This document shows, piece by piece, positions 6,830 through 64,000 of a stretch of 64,000 bases of DNA. The stretch is from the NCBI RefSeq assembly GCF_001677475.2, contig NZ_CP015229.1; one strand, given 5' to 3'. The notes below the pieces were generated by a model. It saw only the letters and a list, made by a program, of their open reading frames with translations. It ran no database searches and was not told where the DNA came from. The stretch comes from Escherichia coli (GTDB lineage: Bacteria; Pseudomonadota; Gammaproteobacteria; Enterobacterales; Enterobacteriaceae). Every line of letters starts with the position of its first letter. Position 1 is the stretch's first letter. A program made the position numbers and the translations under genes.

Positions 6830-7606
6830 ATGTTACGTTTCTCTGCTAATTTATCAATGTTATTTGGTGAATATGATTTTCTCGCCCGTTTTGAGAAAGC
6901 TGCGCAGTGTGGTTTTCGCGGCGTTGAATTTATGTTTCCTTATGACTACGACATTGAAGAATTAAAACAGGTGCTGGCGAGTAATAAACTCGAGCATACG
7001 CTGCATAATTTACCTGCGGGTGACTGGGCGGCGGGCGAGCGGGGTATTGCCTGTATTCCTGGCCGTGAAGAAGAGTTTCGTGATGGCGTAGCAGCGGCGA
7101 TTCGTTATGCTCGTGCGCTGGGTAATAAAAAAATCAACTGTCTGGTCGGTAAAACGCCGGCGGGTTTCAGCAGTGAACTGATTCACGCAACGCTTGTGGA
7201 AAACCTGCGTTATGCCGCGAATATGTTGATGAAAGAAGATATTTTATTACTGATTGAACCTATCAACCATTTCGATATTCCTGGTTTCCATCTCACCGGA
7301 ACTCAGCAGGCGCTGAAACTGATTGATGATGTAGGCTGCTGCAATTTGAAAATTCAGTATGACATTTATCATATGCAGCGGATGGAAGGTGAATTAACCA
7401 ACACCATGATCCAATGGGTCGATAAAATTGGTCACCTGCAAATCGCCGATAATCCACATCGCGGCGAACCGGGAACCGGAGAAATTAATTACGATTATCT
7501 CTTTAAGGTAATTGAACATTCTGACTACAACGGTTGGGTTGGCTGTGAATATAAACCCAGAACCACCACGGAAGCCGGTTTAGGCTGGATGAAACCGTAC
7601 CGTTAA
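6830..7606 (+). CDS. hyi: Hydroxypyruvate isomerase
   Basis: 258-aa ORF, TIM-barrel sugar-isomerase-like; operon position after gcl. Confidence 0.92.
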   Translation: MLRFSANLSMLFGEYDFLARFEKAAQCGFRGVEFMFPYDYDIEELKQVLASNKLEHTLHNLPAGDWAAGERGIACIPGREEEFRDGVAAAIRYARALGNKKINCLVGKTPAGFSSELIHATLVENLRYAANMLMKEDILLLIEPINHFDIPGFHLTGTQQALKLIDDVGCCNLKIQYDIYHMQRMEGELTNTMIQWVDKIGHLQIADNPHRGEPGTGEINYDYLFKVIEHSDYNGWVGCEYKPRTTTEAGLGWMKPYR

Positions 7607-28802: not shown

Positions 28803-29282
28803 CAGAGAGAGGATTCCATCTGTTACGTAGGTCGAAGGGGATGCGCCTATTTTGTCAGAAGCGGGGCGCGCTGTCAGGTTTCGTTTCAGATTTATCGCGT
28901 GAAGCGACCTCTTGCGAAGGTTAGGCGCACCGTCGCTGAGGTCGCTGAGATTGAAAGCTTCATTTTTCGTCCATGATGGCGTTGTAAATCTGGAACTGAT
29001 TTATTTCCTTGTTTAAGGATTAAGATAATTTAAGAAATACCTGACAATATAAAAAGAATTTTCAGCCTGGTAATCTACCGCTTCAGGTCTATATTTGTGT
29101 TGAATATATTTTGCGCGGAAGTATTCATCTAACGGGGCTCTCTATTTTTTAGAGTAGAGTGCATATTTTCAATTAAGACATTCTTAGAGGATAAAAAGGA
29201 ATTTTACTACTATCAGTGTCTTAAATAAAGTAATCGGTTATATACGGATGTGGAGTCGATAAATGAGATTGAAGGAATATAT

Positions 29283-29825
29283 ATGAAATTAAGATTTATT
29301 TCGTCTGCGCTGGCTGCCGCACTATTCGCCGCTACGGGTAGTTATGCTGCCGTTGTAGATGGCGGTACAATTCACTTTGAAGGCGAACTGGTGAATGCTG
29401 CCTGTTCAGTGAATACTGACTCGGCAGACCAGGTTGTCACACTCGGTCAATATCGTACCGATATTTTCAATGCTGTTGGTAATACCTCTGCATTAATTCC
29501 ATTCACCATTCAGTTGAACGACTGCGATCCTGTTGTTGCCGCTAATGCTGCCGTTGCATTTTCTGGTCAGGCTGATGCAATCAATGATAATTTATTGGCC
29601 ATTGCATCCAGTACCAATACAACAACAGCAACGGGTGTCGGTATTGAAATACTTGATAATACATCCGCAATTCTCAAACCTGATGGGAATAGCTTCTCAA
29701 CCAACCAGAACTTGATCCCCGGGACCAACGTTCTTCATTTTTCTGCACGTTATAAAGGCACCGGTACAAGTGCATCAGCAGGGCAAGCAAATGCTGACGC
29801 GACTTTTATTATGAGATACGAATAA
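29283..29825 (+). CDS. sfmA: Type 1-like fimbrial major subunit
   Basis: Signal peptide then fimbrin domain; start set at [16 protein letters not shown] (180 aa); AT-rich upstream region. Confidence 0.9.
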
Positions 29826-30044
29826 TCAAAACCACGTTGTTTTGAATTATATATCACGTCTTATAACAAAGTAATGTACCGGTTGTCTGAAGCGGTATGG
29901 TGGCAATGTAAATCGAAATCATGTTCACTTTGTATCATGCCGCTTTATTAAATGAAAAGGGAATGATGTGTTGTAAGAAACCAAAGCAATCATTTCTTTA
30001 TATTTCTTATTTTTGCCGTTAGGAATACACAAGGCGTATTAACT

Positions 30045-30737
30045 ATGATGACTAAAATAAAGTTATTGATGCTCATTATATTTTATTTAATCATTTCGGC
30101 CAGCGCCCATGCTGCCGGAGGGATCGCATTAGGTGCCACGCGTATTATTTATCCCGCTGATGCTAAACAGACTGCGGTATGGATTAGAAATAGCCATACC
30201 AATGAGCGTTTTCTGGTCAATTCGTGGATTGAAAACAGCAGCGGTGTAAAAGAAAAGTCATTCATCATTACACCGCCACTATTTGTTAGTGAACCCAAAA
30301 GCGAAAATACTTTGCGTATTATTTACACCGGTCCACCGCTGGCGGCAGATCGTGAGTCTCTGTTCTGGATGAATGTTAAGACGATCCCTTCGGTAGATAA
30401 AAATGCATTGAACGGCAGGAATGTTTTGCAACTGGCGATTTTATCGCGCATGAAGTTATTTCTCCGTCCAATTCAATTACAAGAATTACCCGCAGAAGCA
30501 CCGGACACACTTAAGTTTTCGCGATCCGGTAACTATATCAATGTTCATAATCCCTCACCTTTTTATGTCACCCTGGTTAACTTACAAGTGGGCAGCCAAA
30601 AGTTGGGGAATGCTATGGCTGCACCCAGAGTTAATTCACAAATTCCCTTACCCTCAGGAGTGCAGGGAAAGCTGAAATTTCAGACCGTTAATGATTATGG
30701 TTCAGTAACCCCGGTCAGAGAAGTGAACTTAAACTAA
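30045..30737 (+). CDS. sfmC: Periplasmic pilus chaperone
   Basis: 230-aa PapD-like chaperone with signal peptide. Confidence 0.92.
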
Positions 30738-30767
30738 CCGAATCATCTGACAATATCAGAGCTAATT

Positions 30768-33377
30768 ATGAAAATACCCACTACTACGGATATTCCGCAG
30801 AGGTATACCTGGTGTCTGGCCGGAATTTGTTATTCATCTCTTGCCATTTTACCCTCCTTTTTAAGCTATGCGGAAAGTTATTTCAACCCGGCATTTTTAT
30901 TAGAGAATGGCACATCCGTTGCTGATTTATCGCGCTTTGAGAGAGGTAATCATCAACCTGCGGGCGTGTATCGGGTGGATCTCTGGCGTAATGATGAGTT
31001 CATTGGTTCACAGGATATCGTATTTGAATCGACAACAGAAAATACAGGTGATAAATCAGGTGGGTTAATGCCCTGTTTTAACCAGGTACTCCTTGAACGA
31101 ATTGGCCTTAATAGCAGTGCATTTCCCGAGTTAGCCCAGCAGCAAAACAATAAATGCATCAATTTACTGAAAGCTGTACCTGATGCCACAATTAACTTTG
31201 ATTTTGCAGCGATGCGCCTGAACATCACTATTCCTCAGATAGCGTTGTTGAGTAGCGCTCACGGTTACATTCCGCCTGAAGAGTGGGATGAAGGTATTCC
31301 TGCTTTACTCCTGAATTATAATTTCACCGGTAACAGAGGTAATGGTAACGATAGCTATTTTTTTAGTGAACTCAGCGGGATTAATATTGGCCCGTGGCGT
31401 TTACGCAACAATGGTTCCTGGAACTATTTTCGCGGAAATGGATATCATTCAGAACAGTGGAATAATATTGGCACCTGGGTACAGCGCGCCATTATTCCGC
31501 TGAAAAGTGAACTGGTAATGGGAGACGGCAATACAGGAAGTGATATTTTCGATGGCGTTGGATTTCGTGGTGTACGGCTTTACTCTTCCGATAATATGTA
31601 TCCTGATAGCCAGCAAGGATTTGCCCCAACGGTACGTGGGATTGCCCGTACGGCGGCCCAGCTAACGATTCGGCAAAATGGTTTTATTATCTATCAAAGC
31701 TATGTTTCCCCCGGCGCTTTTGAAATTACAGATTTGCACCCGACATCTTCAAATGGCGATCTGGACGTCACCATCGACGAACGCGATGGCAATCAGCAGA
31801 ATTACACTATTCCGTATTCAACAGTGCCAATTTTACAACGCGAAGGGCGTTTCAAATTTGACCTGACGGCGGGCGATTTTCGTAGCGGTAATAGTCAGCA
31901 ATCATCGCCTTTCTTTTTTCAGGGCACGGCACTCGGCGGTTTACCACAGGAATTTACTGCCTACGGCGGGACGCAATTATCTGCCAATTACACCGCCTTT
32001 TTATTAGGGCTGGGGCGCAACCTCGGGAACTGGGGCGCAGTGTCGCTGGATGTGACCCATGCGCGCAGTCAGTTAGCCGACGACAGTCGTCATGAGGGGG
32101 ATTCCATTCGCTTCCTCTATGCGAAATCGATGAATACCTTCGGCACCAATTTTCAGTTAATGGGTTACCGCTATTCGACACAAGGTTTTTATACCCTTGA
32201 TGATGTTGCGTATCGTCGAATGGAGGGGTACGAATATGATTACGATTACGACGGTGAGCATCGCGATGAACCGATAATCGTGAATTACCACAATTTACGC
32301 TTTAGCCGTAAAGACCGTTTGCAGTTAAATATTTCACAATCACTTAATGACTTTGGCTCGCTTTATATCTCTGGTACCCATCAAAAATACTGGAATACTT
32401 CGGATTCAGATACCTGGTATCAGGTGGGGTATACCAGCAGCTGGGTTGGCATCAGTTATTCACTCTCATTTTCGTGGAATGAATCTGTAGGGATCCCCGA
32501 TAACGAACGTATTGTCGGACTTAATGTTTCAGTGCCTTTCAATGTTCTGACCAAACGTCGCTACACCCGGGAAAATGCGCTCGACCGCGCTTATGCCTCC
32601 TTTAACGCCAACCGTAACAGCAACGGGCAAAATAGCTGGCTGGCAGGTGTAGGTGGGACCTTACTGGAAGGCCACAACCTGAGTTATCACGTAAGCCAGG
32701 GTGATACCTCGAATAATGGGTATACGGGCAGCGCCACGGCAAACTGGCAGGCCACTTACGGTACGCTGGGGGTCGGGTATAACTACGACCGCGATCAACA
32801 TGACGTTAACTGGCAGCTGTCTGGCGGTGTGGTCGGGCATGAAAATGGCATAACGCTGAGCCAGCCTTTAGGGGATACCAATGTTTTGATTAAAGCGCCT
32901 GGTGCAGGCGGTGTACGCATTGAAAATCAAACTGGCATTTTAACCGACTGGCGCGGCTATGCGGTGATGCCGTATGCCACGGTTTATCGGTATAACCGTA
33001 TCGCGCTTGATACCAATACGATGGGGAATTCCATCGATGTTGAAAAAAATATTAGCAGCGTTGTGCCGACGCAAGGCGCGTTGGTTCGTGCCAATTTTGA
33101 TACCCGCATAGGCGTGCGGGCGCTCATTACCGTTACCCAGGGCGGAAAACCGGTGCCGTTTGGATCACTGGTACGGGAAAACAGTACCGGAATAACCGGT
33201 ATGGTGGGTGATGACGGGCAAGTTTATTTAAGTGGTGCGCCATTGTCTGGTGAATTACTGGTTCAGTGGGGAGACGGCGCGAACTCACGCTGCATTGCGC
33301 ACTATGTATTGCCGAAGCAAAGCTTACAGCAAGCCGTCACTGTTATTTCGGCAGTTTGCACACATCCTGGCTCATAA
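30768..33377 (+). CDS. sfmD: Outer-membrane fimbrial usher
   Basis: 869-aa usher-family ORF. Confidence 0.92.
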
Positions 33378-33389
33378 AGGAAATTATCA

Positions 33390-34397
33390 ATGAAGATAAT
33401 CTGCAGATTATTATTGGCGATGGCATGTTTGTGGTTAACAAACATATCCTGGGCTACTGTTTGTGCAAATAGTACTGGCGTAACAGAAGATGAACACTAT
33501 GATCTCTCAAATGTCTTTAATAGCACCAATAACCAGCCAGGGCAGATTGTTGTTTTACCGGAAAAATCCGGCTGGGTAGGTGTGTCAGCAATTTGTCCAC
33601 CCGGCACGCTGGTGAATTATACATACCGTAGTTATGTCACCAACTTTATTGTTCAGGAAACTATCGATAATTATAAATATATGCAATTAAATGATTATCT
33701 ATTAGGTGCGATGAGTCTGGTTGATAGCGTGATGGATATTCAGTTTCCCCCGCAAAATTATATTCGGATGGGAACAGATCCTAACGTTTCGCAAAACCTG
33801 CCGTTTGGGGTGATGGATTCTCGTTTGATATTTCGTTTAAAGGTTATTCGTCCTTTTATTAATATGGTGGAGATCCCCAGACAGGTGATGTTTACCGTGT
33901 ATGTGACATCAACGCCTTACGATCCGTTGGTTACACCTGTTTATACCATTAGTTTTGGTGGCCGGGTTGAAGTACCGCAAAACTGCGAATTAAATGCCGG
34001 GCAGATTGTTGAATTTGATTTTGGTGATATCGGCGCATCGTTATTTAGTGCGGCAGGGCCGGGTAATCGACCTGCTGGTGTCATGCCGCAAACCAAGAGC
34101 ATTGCGATCAAATGTACGAATGTTGCTGCACAGGCTTATTTATCAATGCGTCTGGAAGCCAGTGCCGTTTCTGGTCAGGCGATGGTGTCGGACAATCAGG
34201 ATTTAGGTTTTATTGTGGCCGATCAGAACGATACGCCGATCACACCTAACGATCTCAATAGCGTTATTCCTTTCCGCCTAGATGCAGCTGCGGCAGCCAA
34301 TGTCACACTTCGCGCCTGGCCTATCAGTATTACCGGTCAAAAACCGACCGAAGGGCCGTTTAGTGCGCTGGGGTATTTACGCGTCGATTATCAATGA
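33390..34397 (+). CDS. sfmH: Fimbrial adhesin-like subunit
   Basis: 335-aa ORF with signal peptide; operon position after the usher. Confidence 0.85.
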   Translation: MKIICRLLLAMACLWLTNISWATVCANSTGVTEDEHYDLSNVFNSTNNQPGQIVVLPEKSGWVGVSAICPPGTLVNYTYRSYVTNFIVQETIDNYKYMQLNDYLLGAMSLVDSVMDIQFPPQNYIRMGTDPNVSQNLPFGVMDSRLIFRLKVIRPFINMVEIPRQVMFTVYVTSTPYDPLVTPVYTISFGGRVEVPQNCELNAGQIVEFDFGDIGASLFSAAGPGNRPAGVMPQTKSIAIKCTNVAAQAYLSMRLEASAVSGQAMVSDNQDLGFIVADQNDTPITPNDLNSVIPFRLDAAAAANVTLRAWPISITGQKPTEGPFSALGYLRVDYQ

Positions 34398-34407
34398 GGT
34401 ACGGAGA

Positions 34408-34923
34408 ATGAGAAGAGTACTCTTTAGCTGTTTCTGCGGGCTACTGTGGAGTTCCAGTGGATGGGCTGTTGACCCTTTAGGAACGATTAATATCAATTTG
34501 CACGGTAACGTTGTTGATTTCTCCTGTACCGTAAACACTGCGGATATTGATAAGACGGTAGATTTAGGCAGATGGCCTACGACACAATTACTGAACGCTG
34601 GTGATACCACGGCACTCGTCCCTTTTAGCCTGCGGCTGGAGGGATGTCCTCCGGGTTCAGTTGCGATTTTATTTACGGGAACGCCGGCATCCGATACCAA
34701 CCTGCTGGCTCTGGATGATCCCACAATGGCACAAACCGTCGCCATCGAATTACGTAATAGCGATCGCTCCCGGCTCGCACTGGGAGCGGCGAGCCCGACT
34801 GAGGAAGTAGATGCAAATGGCAATGTCACACTAAACTTTTTTGCCAATTATCGAGCGTTAGCCAGCGGTGTTCGGCCAGGTGTGGCGAAAGCGGATGCGA
34901 TATTTATGATCAATTATAATTAA
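34408..34923 (+). CDS. sfmF: Minor fimbrial subunit
   Basis: 171 aa from ATG 34408 with RBS ggag; track ORF extends upstream into sfmH. Confidence 0.88.
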   Translation: MRRVLFSCFCGLLWSSSGWAVDPLGTININLHGNVVDFSCTVNTADIDKTVDLGRWPTTQLLNAGDTTALVPFSLRLEGCPPGSVAILFTGTPASDTNLLALDDPTMAQTVAIELRNSDRSRLALGAASPTEEVDANGNVTLNFFANYRALASGVRPGVAKADAIFMINYN

Positions 34924-34925
34924 TA

Positions 34926-35558
34926 TTATATTAATTCATATAATTTGGCGTAGTCGATAAGCTCTACAATTGAATGCAAACCTAGCTTGCCATAAATATT
35001 AGATTTATGCGCACTAACTGTTTTATTGCTAAGTAATAACTTATCGGCAATTTCTTTATTAGATAATCCGCTAACCAGATAACGTAATATGGTCACTTCA
35101 CGATTAGATAGCACCGTGACCGTTGAACTATTCGTACTACATTTATTGCTTTTTATATAGTTAAGCGTTTCGCTGGGAAAAAAAGTGTATCCGGAGAGGA
35201 TCATCTGAACGGCATGAAAAATATCATTCTGATCATTGCATTTACTGACAAAACCGTTAGCACCAGCTTGTATCGCTCTGCCAGCATAAAAGCATTCTGA
35301 TTTCGATGATAAAAATAATACTTTCACTGTACTCTGGATTTGTTTGATCCTTTTCAGAAAGGTAAAACCGTCAGTACCGGGCAAGTCTATATCCATAATG
35401 ATTAAATCAACAGGACGGGTTCGGATATAATCGATGGTTATGCGGTAATCATCCGTTTTCAGGACAATCTGCAATTCACTGTTTTTTTGCAACAGAACTT
35501 CAATAGACATTCTGATGATAGGATGAGTATCCATAATGATCACCGACGTTGGTTTCAT
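34926..35558 (-). CDS. fimZ: LuxR/NarL-family response regulator
   Basis: Receiver domain plus C-terminal LuxR HTH; start set at MKPTSVIIMDTHPII (210 aa). Confidence 0.92.
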   Translation of the reverse strand: MKPTSVIIMDTHPIIRMSIEVLLQKNSELQIVLKTDDYRITIDYIRTRPVDLIIMDIDLPGTDGFTFLKRIKQIQSTVKVLFLSSKSECFYAGRAIQAGANGFVSKCNDQNDIFHAVQMILSGYTFFPSETLNYIKSNKCSTNSSTVTVLSNREVTILRYLVSGLSNKEIADKLLLSNKTVSAHKSNIYGKLGLHSIVELIDYAKLYELI

Positions 35559-57976: not shown

Positions 57977-58129
57977 ATGCTGACGAAATATGCCCTTGTG
58001 GCAGTCATAGTGCTGTGTTTAACGGTGCTGGGATTTACGCTTCTGGTCGGAGACTCGCTGTGTGAGTTTACGGTGAAGGAACGTAATATTGAGTTTAAGG
58101 CTGTTCTCGCTTACGAACCGAAGAAGTAG
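57977..58129 (+). CDS. hokE: Hok-family host-killing toxin, copy 2 (50 aa)
   Basis: Identical 50-aa Hok; overlapping mok frame intact (track ORF 57877..58065). Confidence 0.9.
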
Positions 58130-58250
58130 CCGTTGTGCGGGGAGTAATCCCCGCATATCCGGTTGTCAGGTCAGGATGGTAAGGCACCTGCTTTACACTT
58201 TCGCCCGTGGTCAGTGATGGCTGCGGGCGAATCGTACCAGATGTTGTCAA

Positions 58251-58880
58251 TTAATCGTGTTGGCACAGCGTTATGACTATTTTTTCTTTTATCTGCCAGT
58301 GCACAGCAAACTGCTCATCCTCTAGTCGAATGATGATCTGCTGTTTATTCCAGCTAATTATCTGATAATCCAGAAAACCTTGAGCGGCCTGTATCTTGCT
58401 TGCCTTAAATGCGCTCTCTTTGGCGGAAAATGCCAGTGTCAGCGCCAGAGAAAAGGTTAAACCGCATTCTGCGAGTCGCTCGTGTTCTGCTGGTGTAATA
58501 ATGTTGTCTGTCAATTCTCTTGCGGTTTGTACAGAGAAAATCTCTTCGATATCAATGCCAATCGGTTGACGAGTTACCACGGCTAATGCCGTAGCCCCAC
58601 AGTGGCTAATACTGCCGTATACCTCCGCAGGCCACACAGGTTGGCGTAGCTCGCCGATTGCGGGCACACATTTATAGCCATATTCCCGCAGCGCATAAAC
58701 TGCAGCGATCCGTCCGGCTAAATGCTCTGTTTTACGTTTACGTCCAGCGTGTTGCAGTTGTGCGTAGTGCGGCAGCCAGAGTAAATCCTGCTCGCGAAAA
58801 CTCGCCGGATCAAACTCAACAAAATGCAGCGTATGTCCTGCAAAGGGGAGGGAGGTATGCGTAGTTTTCATGTCGACCAT
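58251..58880 (-). CDS. entD: Phosphopantetheinyl transferase for enterobactin synthase
   Basis: Start set at MVDMKTTHTSLPF (209 aa); the longer track ORF would run into the REP element. Confidence 0.9.
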   Translation of the reverse strand: MVDMKTTHTSLPFAGHTLHFVEFDPASFREQDLLWLPHYAQLQHAGRKRKTEHLAGRIAAVYALREYGYKCVPAIGELRQPVWPAEVYGSISHCGATALAVVTRQPIGIDIEEIFSVQTARELTDNIITPAEHERLAECGLTFSLALTLAFSAKESAFKASKIQAAQGFLDYQIISWNKQQIIIRLEDEQFAVHWQIKEKIVITLCQHD

Positions 58881-58908
58881 ATTAGAGAATGATGACAAAC
58901 GCAAAACT

Positions 58909-59006
58909 GCCTGATGCGCTACGCTTATCAGGCCTACGTGGTCCTGCAATATATTGAATTGGCAAGATTTTGTAGGCCGGATAAGGCGTTCACGCCGCAT
59001 CCGGCA
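58909..59006. repeat. REP/BIME element between entD and fepA
   Basis: gcctgatgcgctacgcttatcaggcctac...tgtaggccggataaggcgttcacgccgcatccggca; near-identical to 554..651. Confidence 0.85.
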
Positions 59007-59044
59007 TGAACGACGCGCACTTTGTCAACAATCTGACGTTAGCA

Positions 59045-61285
59045 TCAGAAGTGAGTATTAACGCTCATATACCACGTACGTCCCGGCTCGTTATAGGTAT
59101 ACGCCCCGGCACCTGCGATATAGTTGGCTCCTGCCAGATCGCCCGTGGTCTGGGCATTGCCCGCACGCCACAAACGCTTATCGAATAGGTTGTCCACGCC
59201 GCCGGTCAGACTGACATTCTTCGTCACATCCCAGGTCGCGCTCAGGCCAACAATGCTGTAAGGACTAATTTCTTTGGTTTCCGGTCCAACCGCTGGCTGG
59301 CCTTTATAGTTGTACTTCTTCGGCTGCTGCTTGCCGTACCAGGTGAAGGTCGTTTGCATCGACAAATCTTCCCGTGCCTGCCAGCTCAGCGTTGAGTTCA
59401 ACGTATACTCCGGGATGATCGACAAACGGTCGCCCGTGGTTTTGTTTTCACTCTTCAGCATATAAGTGATGTTATTGGTCCACATCACCGTTTCGCTAAC
59501 CGGTACGTTTAACGATCCTTCCAGGCCTTCAACCACTGCTTTCGGCACGTTATCCCACTGATAGAGATCGGTGCCGACTGCGTTTTGTCCTACAGCCACA
59601 TAGCCCGCTTCAATCTTATTGCGATAATCGTTACGGAACCATGTGACGCCCGCCAGCCAGCCGTCGCGTTTGAACTCCAGACCAATCTCTTTGTTGATAC
59701 TGGTTTCCGCTTTCAGGTCATCGTTCCCTTGCAGATAGCAGCCGCCCGCGCTGGCATAGCAGCCCTGACCTTTACTGTAGAGAATGTAGTTCGGGTTAGT
59801 CTGGTACAGGCTCGGCGCTTTATAGGCGCGGGCAATGCCCATTTTCAGCGTGAAGTCATCGCCTAAACCTTGCGATATGTTCAGCGCCGGGCTCCAGTTA
59901 TTGCCGACAATACTGTGATGATCGAAACGCAGCCCCGGCGTTACGATGGTGCTGTCAGTCAGCTCCATGTTGTTTTCGGCAAACAGCGAGAAAATTTCTG
60001 CTTTTGAATACGGGCTACGGTCGGTGGCACTCACGCCATCAATAGCGCCACCGGTATTCGTTCCGGTCAGTGCCTGGGTGTTGGAACTTAAGTCCTTCAT
60101 CCGTTGCTGATTCCACTCCGTACCCAGCGTCAGCGTTTGGTTAACGAGGAAATCAATCGGCAGGTTAACTTCGCTGTGCAGCATCACGTCATCAAGATCG
60201 ATATCGACGAAATCCTGTGTCGCTTTTTCGTTAAATTTCCCTTCGGTACCACCCGCCAGACCTTCCGGAATACGCGAGTTACGGGTGTGTTCGTACTGCA
60301 CCCAGTTGCTGGTGGTCACGCCGTTATCCCAGCCACCGTTCCAGGTCAGCGAGTAGTTCTGGCGATACAGGCGGTTGGTTTCATCGCCATATTTCGAGCG
60401 AGTGTAAGCGTCAGAGTTGGTGTTCTGGGTATCGCCCGCATACAGGTTACCCTGGCGGCTGTAACCCGCTTCCAGTTCGAGTGATTGCAGAGGCGCGAAG
60501 TCCCAGCGCACCACGCCATTAATATCTTTGTTGATCACCCCTTCGCGCCCGGCTGGTAACGTCGTGGCATACGTTCCGGCACGCGCGGACTGATGACCCT
60601 GGTTGATATCCCACGCGTCAGCCTGGGTTTTGTCGAGGTTGCCATACAAGCGGAAGCTGAATTCGTCGCCCAGCGGACCGGTCAGGCTGAAGTTGGTGCG
60701 TTTAGTGGCACCTTCCTCTTTATGTTCTGGCGCATTGAAATAAGCGTCCCAGGAGCCGTGCCACTCACCGCTGCCTTTTTTGGTAATGATGTTAACCACG
60801 CCGCCCGCCGCGCCGTTGCCGTAACGCGCAGCTGCCGGACCACGCAGAACTTCAATACGTTCAATCATTTCAGGTGGCACCCAGGAAGTATCACCACGGG
60901 TATCGCGCTCTCCACGCCAGCCCTGACGCACCGAGTTACGGCTGCTGACCGGTTTGCCGTCAATTAAAATCAGCGTGTTTTCCGGACCCATGCCGCGAAT
61001 ATCAATCTGGCGGTTATTACCACGCTGACCACTGGTGGAGTTACCGGTCAGGTTAACGCCTGGCATGGTACGGATAATCTCCGACACATCGCGGGCAACC
61101 GGGTTTTTGCGGATTTCATCTGCGGTGATGGTCGAAACGCCAGGCGCCTGCAAGTTCTGCTCGGCGGCGGTAACGACAATAGTATCGTCATGTGAAACAG
61201 GAGTATCGGTCGGCTCTTGTGCCTGCGCTACCCCATAAATCCCCAGATTGACCAACAAGGCCAGGGAATGAATCTTCTTGTTCAT
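59045..61285 (-). CDS. fepA: TonB-dependent ferric enterobactin outer-membrane receptor
   Basis: Start set at MNKKIHSLALLVNLGIYGVAQA (746 aa); TonB box DTIVVTA; C-terminal aromatic residue. Confidence 0.96.
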   Translation of the reverse strand: MNKKIHSLALLVNLGIYGVAQAQEPTDTPVSHDDTIVVTAAEQNLQAPGVSTITADEIRKNPVARDVSEIIRTMPGVNLTGNSTSGQRGNNRQIDIRGMGPENTLILIDGKPVSSRNSVRQGWRGERDTRGDTSWVPPEMIERIEVLRGPAAARYGNGAAGGVVNIITKKGSGEWHGSWDAYFNAPEHKEEGATKRTNFSLTGPLGDEFSFRLYGNLDKTQADAWDINQGHQSARAGTYATTLPAGREGVINKDINGVVRWDFAPLQSLELEAGYSRQGNLYAGDTQNTNSDAYTRSKYGDETNRLYRQNYSLTWNGGWDNGVTTSNWVQYEHTRNSRIPEGLAGGTEGKFNEKATQDFVDIDLDDVMLHSEVNLPIDFLVNQTLTLGTEWNQQRMKDLSSNTQALTGTNTGGAIDGVSATDRSPYSKAEIFSLFAENNMELTDSTIVTPGLRFDHHSIVGNNWSPALNISQGLGDDFTLKMGIARAYKAPSLYQTNPNYILYSKGQGCYASAGGCYLQGNDDLKAETSINKEIGLEFKRDGWLAGVTWFRNDYRNKIEAGYVAVGQNAVGTDLYQWDNVPKAVVEGLEGSLNVPVSETVMWTNNITYMLKSENKTTGDRLSIIPEYTLNSTLSWQAREDLSMQTTFTWYGKQQPKKYNYKGQPAVGPETKEISPYSIVGLSATWDVTKNVSLTGGVDNLFDKRLWRAGNAQTTGDLAGANYIAGAGAYTYNEPGRTWYMSVNTHF

Positions 61286-61452
61286 TGTTTTATTCCTGCA
61301 TTTTTGCCACGAATTGCAACTGTCGGGCATGGTCGTCATCAACACGACGCATCCCGCTACCGCGAAAACCTTTGATCCTGAAAGACACGCAGTGCAGTTG
61401 GTTAATTAATGTCCGCGCTTCCCACGGCGCGCCATTACGCTATTGCAAATGC

Positions 61453-61480
61453 AAATAGTTATCAATAATATTATCAATAT
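61453..61480. promoter_or_regulatory. Fur box(es) in the divergent fepA-fes promoter
   Basis: aaatagttatcaataatattatcaatat, overlapping matches to the Fur consensus GATAATGATAATCATTATC. Confidence 0.75.
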
Positions 61481-61527
61481 ATTTCTGCAATCAATGAAAA
61501 ATTGCACAGTAAACATGGGGTTATGGT

Positions 61528-62730
61528 GTGGCGGCGTTAAAAGTAGGAAGTGAGAGCTGGTGGCAGTCGAAACATGGCCCGGAATGGCAGCGTCTGAATG
61601 ACGAAATGTTTGAGGTCACTTTCTGGTGGCGTGATCCCCAAGGTTCTGAAGAATACTCGACGATAAAGCGCGTATGGGTCTACATCACTGGTGTGACCGA
61701 TCACCATCAGAACAGCCAGCCCCAGTCGATGCAGCGAATTGCAGGCACCAACGTCTGGCAGTGGACGACACAACTCAATGCCAACTGGCGCGGCAGCTAC
61801 TGTTTTATTCCCACCGAACGCGATGACATTTTTTCTGCACCATCACCCGATTGCCTCGAATTGCGCGAAGGCTGGCGAAAACTATTACCCCAGGCGATAG
61901 CCGATCCGCTGAATCCACAAAGCTGGAAAGGCGGGCGAGGGCACGCTGTTTCTGCACTCGAAATGCCGCAAGCGCCTCTGCAACCGGGATGGGATTGTCC
62001 GCAAGCGCCAGAAATACCTGCCAAAGAAATTATCTGGAAAAGTGAACGGTTGAAAAATTCACGCCGTGTATGGATTTTTACCACCGGCGATGCAACAGCA
62101 GAAGAACGCCCGCTGGCAGTTTTGCTTGATGGCGAATTTTGGGCGCAGTGTATGCCCGTCTGGCCTGGGCTGACTTCGCTGACCCATCGTCAGCAACTTC
62201 CTCCCGCCGTGTATGTGTTGATCGACGCTATCGACACCACGCACCGCGCCCACGAACTGACGTGTAATGCGGATTTCTGGCTGGCAGTACAGCAAGAGTT
62301 ATTACCCCTGGTGAAAGCTATTGCCCCTTTTAGCGATCGCGCCGATCGCACCGTGGTCGCCGGGCAGAGTTTTGGTGGGCTTTCCGCGCTGTATGCCGGA
62401 CTGCACTGGCCTGAACGCTTTGGCTGTGTATTAAGCCAGTCAGGATCGTACTGGTGGCCGCATCGGGGCGGGCAGCAAGAGGGCGTGTTACTTGAAAAGC
62501 TAAAAGCTGGTGGAGTTAGCGCCGAAGGTCTGCGCATTGTGCTGGAAGCGGGTATTCGCGAGCCGATGATTATGCGGGCCAATCAGGCGCTGTATGCGCA
62601 ATTACACCCCATAAAAGAATCCATTTTCTGGCGTCAGGTTGACGGCGGACATGATGCGCTTTGTTGGCGCGGTGGCTTGATGCAGGGGCTAATCGACCTC
62701 TGGCAACCACTTTTCCATGACAGGAGTTGA
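61528..62730 (+). CDS. fes: Enterobactin/ferric enterobactin esterase
   Basis: 400-aa ORF from GTG 61528; esterase GxSxG (GQSFGG); an internal ATG (MFEVTFWW) is an alternative start. Confidence 0.92.
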   Translation: MAALKVGSESWWQSKHGPEWQRLNDEMFEVTFWWRDPQGSEEYSTIKRVWVYITGVTDHHQNSQPQSMQRIAGTNVWQWTTQLNANWRGSYCFIPTERDDIFSAPSPDCLELREGWRKLLPQAIADPLNPQSWKGGRGHAVSALEMPQAPLQPGWDCPQAPEIPAKEIIWKSERLKNSRRVWIFTTGDATAEERPLAVLLDGEFWAQCMPVWPGLTSLTHRQQLPPAVYVLIDAIDTTHRAHELTCNADFWLAVQQELLPLVKAIAPFSDRADRTVVAGQSFGGLSALYAGLHWPERFGCVLSQSGSYWWPHRGGQQEGVLLEKLKAGGVSAEGLRIVLEAGIREPMIMRANQALYAQLHPIKESIFWRQVDGGHDALCWRGGLMQGLIDLWQPLFHDRS

Positions 62731-62732
62731 AT

Positions 62733-62951
62733 ATGGCATTCAGTAATCCCTTCGATGATCCACAGGGAGCGTTTTACATTTTGCGCAATGCGCAGGGTCA
62801 ATTCAGTCTGTGGCCGCAACAATGCGCCTTACCGGCAGGCTGGGACATTGTGTGTCAGCCGCAGTCACAAGAGTCCTGCCAGCAGTGGCTTGAAGCCCAC
62901 TGGCGTACTCTGACACCGGCGAATTTCACCCAGTTGCAGGAGGCGCAATGA
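62733..62951 (+). CDS. ybdZ: MbtH-like protein
   Basis: 72 aa from ATG 62733 (MAFSNPFDDPQGAFYIL...), RBS caggag; 4-nt overlap with entF. Confidence 0.93.
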   Translation: MAFSNPFDDPQGAFYILRNAQGQFSLWPQQCALPAGWDIVCQPQSQESCQQWLEAHWRTLTPANFTQLQEAQ

Positions 62952-64000
62952 GCCAGCATTTACCTTTGGTCGCCGCACAGCCCGGCATCTGGATGGCAGA
63001 AAAACTGTCGGATTTACCCTCCGCCTGGAGCGTGGCGCATTACGTTGAGTTAACCGGAGAGGTTGATGCGCCATTACTGGCCCGCGCGGTGGTTGCCGGA
63101 TTAGCGCAAGCAGATACGTTGCGGATGCGTTTTACGGAAGATAACGGCGAAGTCTGGCAATGGGTTGATGATGCGCTGATATTCGAACTACCAGAAATTA
63201 TCGACCTGCGAACCAATATTGATCCGCACGGTACTGCGCGGGCATTAATGCAGGCGGATTTGCAACAAGATTTGCGCGTCGATAGCGGTAAACCACTGGT
63301 CTTTCATCAGCTGATACAGGTGGCGGATAACCGCTGGTACTGGTATCAGCGTTATCACCATTTGCTGGTCGATGGCTTCAGTTTCCCGGCCATTACCCGC
63401 CAGATCACCAATATTTACTGCACATTGCTGCGTGGTGAACCAACGCCTGCTTCGCCGTTTACGCCTTTCGCTGATGTAGTGGAAGAGTACCAGCAATACC
63501 GCGAAAGCGAAGCCTGGCAGCGTGATGCGGCATTCTGGGCAGAACAGCGTCGTCAACTGCCGCCGCCCGCGTCACTTTCTCCGGCACCTTTACCGGGGCG
63601 CAGCGCTTCGGCAGATATTTTGCGTCTGAAAATGGAATTTACCGACGGGGAATTCCGCCAGTTGGCTACGCAACTTTCAGGTGTGCAGCGTACCGATTTA
63701 GCCCTTGCGCTGACGGCTTTGTGGCTGGGGCGATTGTGCAACCGCATGGACTACGCCGCCGGATTTATCTTTATGCGTCGACTGGGCTCGGCGGCGTTGA
63801 CGGCTACCGGACCCGTGCTCAACGTTTTGCCGCTGGGTATTCATATTGTGGCGCAAGAAACGCTGCCGGAACTGGCAACCCGACTGGCAGCACAACTGAA
63901 AAAAATGCGTCGCCATCAACGTTACGATGCCGAACAAATTGTCCGTGACAGCGGGCGAGCGGCAGGTGATGAACCGCTGTTTGGTCCGGTACTCAATATT
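62948..64000 (+). CDS. entF: Enterobactin synthase component F (NRPS), N-terminal condensation domain; 3' end beyond the window
   Basis: ATG 62948; MSQHLPLVAAQPGIWMAEKLS...; HHLLVDGFSF condensation motif; open to the window end, so absent from the ORF track. Confidence 0.93.
   Translation, partial: MSQHLPLVAAQPGIWMAEKLSDLPSAWSVAHYVELTGEVDAPLLARAVVAGLAQADTLRMRFTEDNGEVWQWVDDALIFELPEIIDLRTNIDPHGTARALMQADLQQDLRVDSGKPLVFHQLIQVADNRWYWYQRYHHLLVDGFSFPAITRQITNIYCTLLRGEPTPASPFTPFADVVEEYQQYRESEAWQRDAAFWAEQRRQLPPPASLSPAPLPGRSASADILRLKMEFTDGEFRQLATQLSGVQRTDLALALTALWLGRLCNRMDYAAGFIFMRRLGSAALTATGPVLNVLPLGIHIVAQETLPELATRLAAQLKKMRRHQRYDAEQIVRDSGRAAGDEPLFGPVLNI

Follow-up and report, generated by a model that had tools for sequence, protein, structure and literature searches.

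The window analysed here is a stretch of 64,000 nt from Escherichia coli (NZ_CP015229.1, assembly GCF_001677475.2), and all positions are given in window numbering. The end of the window harbors the left part of the E. coli enterobactin cluster, with entD and fepA on the minus strand and fes, ybdZ, and the beginning of entF on the plus strand (Table 1). The gene identities derived from Pfam agreed with the RefSeq annotation of near-identical E. coli genomes. For entD, the K-12 annotation comprises only 621 nt, which correspond to 58251-58871 of the window. The genes fepA and fes form a divergent pair, with an ATG at 61285 on the minus strand and a GTG at 61528 on the plus strand as start codons. 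The intergenic region between them (61286-61527) has a length of 242 bp and a GC content of 43%, compared to 51% for the whole window. An initial annotation of this DNA gave the right end of the intergenic region correctly and placed its left end at 61346 instead of 61286, because a mechanically called open reading frame (59045..61345) extends fepA to an upstream GTG.

Table 1. Genes and sequence features in and around the fepA-fes intergenic region (window positions).
Feature	Position	Strand	Description and basis
entD ORF	58251..59000	-	phosphopantetheinyl transferase; downstream of fepA on the same strand; Pfam 4PPT_N and ACPS
fepA	59045..61285	-	ferric enterobactin TonB-dependent receptor, 746 aa; Pfam Plug and TonB_dep_Rec_b-barrel; RefSeq annotation
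Inverted repeat CGCGC-N8-GCGCG	61414..61432	none	GC-rich; directly to the left of the operator; within the fepA leader, ~+27 to +45 relative to the putative start
Fur operator	61436..61483	none	equivalent of the K-12 DNase I footprint, transferred via gap-free K-12 alignment; 94% identity (11 species)
Conserved core of the operator	61437..61475		39-bp block; 98% identity (11 species)
Rest of the intergenic region			47% identity (11 species)
Adjacent fepA and fes codons			64-80% identity (11 species)
fes -35 TTGCAA (putative)	61443..61448	+	derived from the sequence; spacer of 17 bp before TAATAT; invariant across genera
Four overlapping 19-bp Fur-box matches	61445..61481		37 bp, 6-bp phase; starts 61445, 61451, 61457, 61463; matrix
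Contiguous GATAAT-type hexamers	61458..61481		GTTATC, AATAAT, ATTATC, AATATA; core of the observation in the initial annotation
fepA -10 TATTAT	61465..61470	-	promoter scan; same hexamer as in the K-12 promoter (PMC10301672); invariant across genera
fes -10 TAATAT (putative)	61466..61471	+	overlap with the fepA -10 of the other strand; invariant across genera
fepA -35 TTGCAG	61485..61490	-	PMC10301672 and scan; alternative TTGATT at 61494-61489
fes ribosome-binding region CATGGGGTTA	61514..61523	+	5-14 nt upstream of the GTG
fes	61528..62730	+	enterochelin esterase, 400 aa, GTG start; Pfam Enterochelin_N and Esterase; RefSeq annotation
ybdZ	62733..62951	+	MbtH-like protein, 72 aa; Pfam MbtH, E = 1e-21; K-12 annotation
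entF, 5' part only	62948..64000	+	enterobactin NRPS; runs past the window end; Pfam Condensation

The older K-12 start of fes (Chen 2007, distance -149) corresponds to the ATG of MFEVTFWW at 61606, and the current RefSeq annotation uses the GTG at 61528. We favored the upstream start (61528), since in other genera the tblastn matches extend back to residues 1-7 of the query. The sequence CATGGGGTTA in front of this GTG probably acts as the Shine-Dalgarno sequence of fes; the stretch around it (61511-61527) was 83% conserved across genera.

Other small reading frames in the intergenic region were rejected. A 66-aa "hypothetical protein" that is annotated by RefSeq, e.g., in E. coli CRE1493, across the fepA leader and the operator (~61290-61490, minus strand) is probably an annotation artefact, since a TAG closes the frame in the window and conservation of the region is low. 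Conservation was weakest, with 23-40% identity and indels, where small ORFs run on the plus strand antisense to the fepA leader.

The stop codon of fes (62728-30) is separated from the ATG of ybdZ (62733) by 2 nt (AT, 62731-62732) and not by 3 nt as originally described, while the described 4-nt overlap of ybdZ and entF was confirmed: the stop codon of ybdZ and the start codon of entF share the ATGA at 62948-62951. This overlap is annotated alike in K-12. Neither promoter-like nor terminator-like sites were found in the stretch 62400-63300, which comprises the fes/ybdZ/entF junctions. A cross-genus set was compiled from one Fes scan of species-representative genomes, which resulted in 34 loci. 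The order fes-ybdZ-entF was kept in 32 of these. The ATGA overlap of ybdZ and entF was present in nearly all Enterobacteriaceae examined, and the gap between fes and ybdZ ranged from 2 to 31 nt within this family. The location on the same strand, the tight junctions, the conserved gene order, and a junction region free of terminator-like signals all argue for coupling of the three genes, which probably form a single operon, as was initially proposed. In K-12, coupled expression of fes and entF was reportedly observed by Pettis and McIntosh in 1987.

Two further observations concern the surroundings of this locus. Between fepA and entD, two REP-type small-RNA models of Rfam were matched: ES036/CssrF with 42.2 bits, which exceeds the gathering threshold, at 58930-58971 (minus strand), and naRNA4 below the threshold at 58975-59016 (plus strand). 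The Rfam matches at 58930-59035 fit repetitive extragenic palindromes inside the fepA-entD transcript. In the window, gcl/hyi (at ~5-8 kb) and fes (at 61.5 kb) are located ~56 kb apart. The corresponding distance in K-12 is presumably ~79 kb, as judged from estimated coordinates. The strain appears to lack roughly 20 kb that are present in the K-12 interval, presumably the DLP12 prophage and IS186.

Correspondence with the characterized K-12 control region

Over its 242 bp, the intergenic region does not differ from that of E. coli K-12 MG1655 at a single base (gap-free alignment, 0 mismatches), and the same alignment showed no intergenic difference between the window and strain RM10042. The sole nearby mismatch to K-12 is located outside the operator in codon 2 of fes, where G instead of A at 61531 changes ACG to GCG (Thr2Ala). 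For the 61531 G variant, no 60-mer match of at least 99% was found among the 5,414 complete E. coli genomes holding the locus, and within that set the variant is private to this sequence. G is also the state at 61531 in E. albertii and in Citrobacter sp. R56.

The bidirectional fepA-fes promoter-operator of E. coli K-12 was described by Pettis, Brickman & McIntosh 1988, Hunt, Pettis & McIntosh 1994, and Escolar, Perez-Martin & de Lorenzo 1998. The window shares its flanking genes, its footprint position, and its promoter hexamers, and the control regions show no differences. In K-12, the DNase I footprint of Fur extends over 611868-611915 of NC_000913.2 (Hunt 1994, tabulated in Chen 2007, Table 3, PMC2189734). 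Chen 2007 (PMC2189734) also predicted that 4 clustered Fur sites occupy 37 bp at fepA-fes; the strongest of them, at 611889, has 18.7 bits and is 172 bp away from the start of fepA. Coordinates were transferred by setting the fepA start at 611717 (NC_000913.2) equal to window position 61285. By this transfer, the footprint falls on the operator listed in Table 1, and the strongest site of Chen 2007 on ~61457. The AT-rich stretch AAATAGTTATCAATAATATTATCAATAT at 61453-61480, to which the initial annotation had drawn attention, was positioned exactly and lies inside the footprint. As a description of the operator extent it was too short and missed the left third; the true extent is from about 61436/61445 to 61481/61483 and reaches further left than AAATAGTTATCAATAATATTATCAATAT.

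Binding and regulation by Fur are well documented for this locus in the literature. ChIP showed that Fur was bound in K-12 and in eight other E. coli strains, and fepA-entD in K-12 is both bound and regulated by Fur. For nine E. coli strains and for Salmonella, fepA, fes, entF, and ybdZ were reported to depend on Fur, and fes, ybdZ, and entF are common to the Fur-1 iModulon. Deletion of fur in Salmonella increased the expression of fes by a factor of 39.8 and of fepA by a factor of 10.7 (PMC3212961). The fepA-fes Fur operator has long been described (Pettis 1988; Hunt 1994; Escolar 1998; Chen 2007), and our result leaves the current understanding unchanged. Its value is mainly one of annotation: the strain carries an intact iron switch of wild-type sequence for enterobactin uptake and synthesis. 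The enterobactin genes are regarded as factors of virulence and fitness, and they are part of the conserved core of the Fur regulon in E. coli. The correct recognition of a real operator from the raw sequence also serves as a positive control. The strain presumably has a functional Fur protein, the gene for which lies outside the window.

Fur-box matches and the putative overlap of the promoters

The best count for the plain consensus GATAATGATAATCATTATC at the operator was 13/19. This match is undiscriminating, because dozens of window positions equal it, and many coding positions equal or exceed it. A weighted matrix was therefore used instead. This palindromic 19-bp Fur matrix was obtained by expectation-maximisation from 12 footprinted or confirmed K-12 regions (fepD-entS, fepB, entC, fur, tonB, cir, sodA, fecA, fecI, fhuF with two sites, and fhuA), and fepA-fes was left out. 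The matrix scan, which the initial annotation had named as a check, supported the operator: its best match with the leave-one-out matrix, GCAAATAGTTATCAATAAT at 61451-61469, reached 14.86 bits and rank 2 among 63,982 window positions. Together with its neighbors it forms a series of four overlapping sites in a 6-bp phase, with matrix scores of 6.2 (61445), 14.9 (61451), 2.0 (61457), and 5.7 bits (61463). The summed score of these phased sites was 28.8 and ranked first in the whole window, and their span of 37 bp matches the cluster published by Chen 2007. In 5,000 dinucleotide shuffles of the 242-bp intergenic region, only a fraction of 0.0002 reached 28.8. When only the AT-rich core (61436-61500, 23% GC) was shuffled, a fraction of 0.0036 reached the phased sum.

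The top single-site score in the window was found for GAAATTAATTACGATTATC at 7481-7499 (17.0 bits), which encodes EINYDYL in hyi, the gene for hydroxypyruvate isomerase, and has no phased partners of note. We did not consider it a Fur site: it lies inside the hyi coding sequence (GEINYDYL) and is probably a coding coincidence. Because this position outscores the operator, the single-site score alone is not diagnostic. The operator is recognizable only by the weighted matrix or as a phased array. A cluster of mid-range matrix matches was also present in the AT-rich stretch at ~29000-35000 (e.g., at 30062, 31344, 32232, 32455, and 34912), and these may be no more than an effect of AT richness in DNA that was possibly acquired horizontally.

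The hexamers that follow each other without gaps in the right part of the operator showed different degrees of similarity to GATAAT or its complement. The match was 5/6 for GTTATC (61458-63) and AATAAT (61464-69), 6/6 for ATTATC (61470-75), and 4/6 for AATATA (61476-81). When the 7-1-7 model was applied, 61450-64 matched in 11/14 positions, which is among the top five window positions, and 61462-76 in 10/14. The stretch 61445-61481 thus agrees with the Fur recognition model in its 19-bp boxes, its contiguous hexamers, and its 7-1-7 units. Overlapping Fur-box-like hexamers had been noted in AAATAGTTATCAATAATATTATCAATAT before, and this description holds, since the contiguous hexamers match in 4-6 of 6 positions and the phased matrix matches exceed the shuffle expectation.

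The promoter scan revealed one minus-strand promoter-like site, with TATTAT at 61470-61465 as the -10 hexamer. The fepA promoter of K-12 was reported as TTGCAG-14-TATTAT in the ROSE study (PMC10301672), where its start site was visible only in vitro and after deletion of fur but not in the wild type. The stretch with the fepA -35 was only 43% conserved across genera, in contrast to the invariant -10. The invariant sequence TGATAATAT on the minus strand (61468-61476) is a possible extended -10, and as such it could make the fepA -35 dispensable.

The promoter hexamers of fes were below the threshold of the promoter scan (8/12 with the -35 TTGCAA). The start sites of fepA and fes are 19 bp apart, and the two promoters overlap almost completely (Masulis et al., PMC4469952, citing Pettis 1988). 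We assigned 61443-48 as -35 and 61466-71 as -10 of fes, because this fits the 19-bp separation of the start sites (PMC4469952). The start sites would then be located at ~61458 for fepA (minus strand) and at ~61478 for fes (plus strand). With these assignments the hexamers of the divergent promoters overlap in sequence, and the fepA -10 as well as the putative -35 and -10 of fes lie within 61436-61483, as would the two start positions.

We concluded, with a probability of about 95%, that this region is the textbook fepA-fes Fur operator, which lies over two back-to-back weak sigma-70 promoters and co-represses fepA-entD and fes-ybdZ-entF. The two -10 hexamers would share the same base pairs on opposite strands in the 100%-conserved center of the operator. 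When iron is sufficient, Fe2+-Fur dimers would bind to the 6-bp-phased array of GATAAT-like hexamers. This array would extend over the fes -35, the two -10 elements, and the two start sites, so that RNA polymerase would have access to neither promoter, with joint repression of the fepA-entD and fes-ybdZ-entF transcripts. Under iron limitation, apo-Fur would leave the DNA and both operons would fire, with fes, ybdZ, and entF being expressed from the one fes promoter. Coordinated in vitro repression of both promoters by Fur was reportedly achieved by Escolar et al. in 1998. The presence of a Fur operator between the divergent operons, as proposed from the sequence in the initial annotation, is strongly supported by the identity to K-12, the transferred footprint, the independent matrix, and the peak of conservation across genera. 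The identity, matrix scores, footprint conservation, hexamers, and gene junctions were computed here, and Fur binding and Fur-dependent expression were taken from the literature.

Conservation of the operator and of its left flank

A 551-bp query over the region matched in 5,414 of 5,426 complete E. coli genomes (best match 99.8%), with the flanks annotated as fepA and fes. Within E. coli, the intergenic region hardly varies: 4,163 records showed an identity of at least 99%, and in many of these, K-12 derivatives among them, the match was perfect (100%). In five sampled E. coli variants, all substitutions were located outside 61436-61483. One change inside the operator was present among these variants, an increase from 2 to 5 copies of TGCAAA (+18 bp) in the bat isolate E. 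coli A20. This expansion aligns to 61444-61455 in the left half of the operator and keeps the 6-bp phase. Variants of this kind are rare, since only 2 of the 5,414 genomes fell into the band of 90-95% identity.

Among the 34 loci of the cross-genus set, the same or nearly the same 19-mer was found 68-84 bp upstream of the fes match in every locus that had a divergent fepA with a FepA match reaching the N-terminus. The loci with this 19-mer came from Escherichia, Citrobacter, Leclercia, Kluyvera, Enterobacter, and an isolate labelled "Erwinia". A strong Fur match, though a different one, also precedes fes in Mangrovibacter, Iodobacter, and Aeromonas. The homologues from the Pseudomonas oryzihabitans group had neither fepA nor a Fur match in the 600 bp upstream that were scanned.

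An alignment of 11 species from 6 genera, in which identity was measured against the window, demonstrated that the site is conserved at orthologous promoters. As seen in Table 1, identity was highest in the core and in the footprint as a whole, lower in the adjacent fepA and fes codons, and lowest in the rest of the intergenic region. The positions 61466-61475 were 100% conserved across genera. The sharp phylogenetic footprint seen in this alignment and the biochemical footprint fall together. The stronger conservation of the operator compared to the neighboring coding sequence quantifies a known site and is no new finding.

The invariant block reaches 8-20 bp to the left of the Fur-like hexamers and there comprises ACGCTAT (61437-43) and the GCGCG repeat, which are not Fur-like. 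It is not obvious that Fur alone accounts for this left extension. The inverted repeat was conserved in Escherichia, Citrobacter, Leclercia, and Enterobacter and lost in Kluyvera; in "Erwinia" sp. OLFS4 and C. freundii M21 the stem was kept with different loops. Wherever it was kept, the CGCGC/GCGCG stem itself never varied. Compared to shuffled sequences, neither the fepA leader (z = -0.37) nor the fes leader (z = +1.0) folded better, and there was no indication of a structured leader or riboswitch. An Rfam search of 58000-64000 with a relaxed E-value revealed nothing in the fepA-fes intergenic region, and the fepA-fes, fepD-entS, and fepB-entC regions had no k-mers in common beyond the Fur core. 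We consider it rather doubtful that ACGCTAT and the inverted repeat (61414-61444) represent a second, uncharacterised cis element. If they do, this element might be a 5' stem-loop setting the stability or translation of the fepA mRNA, or a site for a co-regulator acting on both promoters. Hunt et al. are said to have found in 1994 that mutations outside the promoter determinants lowered both transcripts, and to have suggested other regulatory components. A co-regulator site, if present, could be one of these "other regulatory components".

The left extension also bears on the very improbable reading that the conserved block primarily serves to bind another protein, such as CRP, OmpR, or a nucleoid protein with a preference for AT-rich DNA (e.g., H-NS or Fis), and that Fur is secondary. 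The conservation running from the Fur-like hexamers into the GC-rich stretch 61414-61444 would be in line with such a site, as would the effect of mutations outside the promoter determinants and the other components that Hunt et al. reportedly suggested in 1994, and CRP and OmpR are tied to iron genes in the literature. However, the strongest conservation (100%, 61466-75) falls on the best Fur hexamers, Fur binding and Fur-dependent expression are directly documented, and only the k-mers of the Fur core link the region to other ent promoters. A second factor would moreover add to the control by Fur and not replace it. Still less credible is that the AT-rich stretch merely represents the overlapping -10 elements of the divergent promoters and resembles Fur boxes by its AT richness, with no specific repressor involved: TATAAT-like and GATAAT-like hexamers do look alike, the classical consensus is matched in only 13/19 positions, and the AT-rich DNA at 29-35 kb also yields mid-range matrix scores, but composition-preserving shuffles of the AT-rich core reached the phased score in only 0.36% of cases, the invariant block of 39 bp far exceeds two -10 hexamers in length, and the identical K-12 sequence was footprinted by Fur and showed the fepA start only with fur deleted or in vitro.

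Related Fur-controlled promoters

The Fur operator at fepA-fes has counterparts within the enterobactin cluster. Like fepA-fes, fepD-entS (ybdA) and fepB-entC are divergent iron-regulated operons with Fur sites over promoter elements, and their sites helped to train the matrix that detects fepA-fes. The fepB-entC region has two separately protected regions, one for each promoter, whereas fepA-fes has one shared operator because its two -10 elements presumably coincide. Neither fepD-entS nor fepB-entC shares any sequence with fepA-fes beyond the Fur core. The aerobactin promoter iucA of pColV-K30 resembles fepA-fes in its array of GATAAT-type hexamers, the binding of several Fur dimers, and the 6-bp phasing. 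Its footprint is longer, with 13 predicted sites over ~100 bp acting in one direction, in contrast to 4 sites over 37 bp acting in two directions at fepA-fes.
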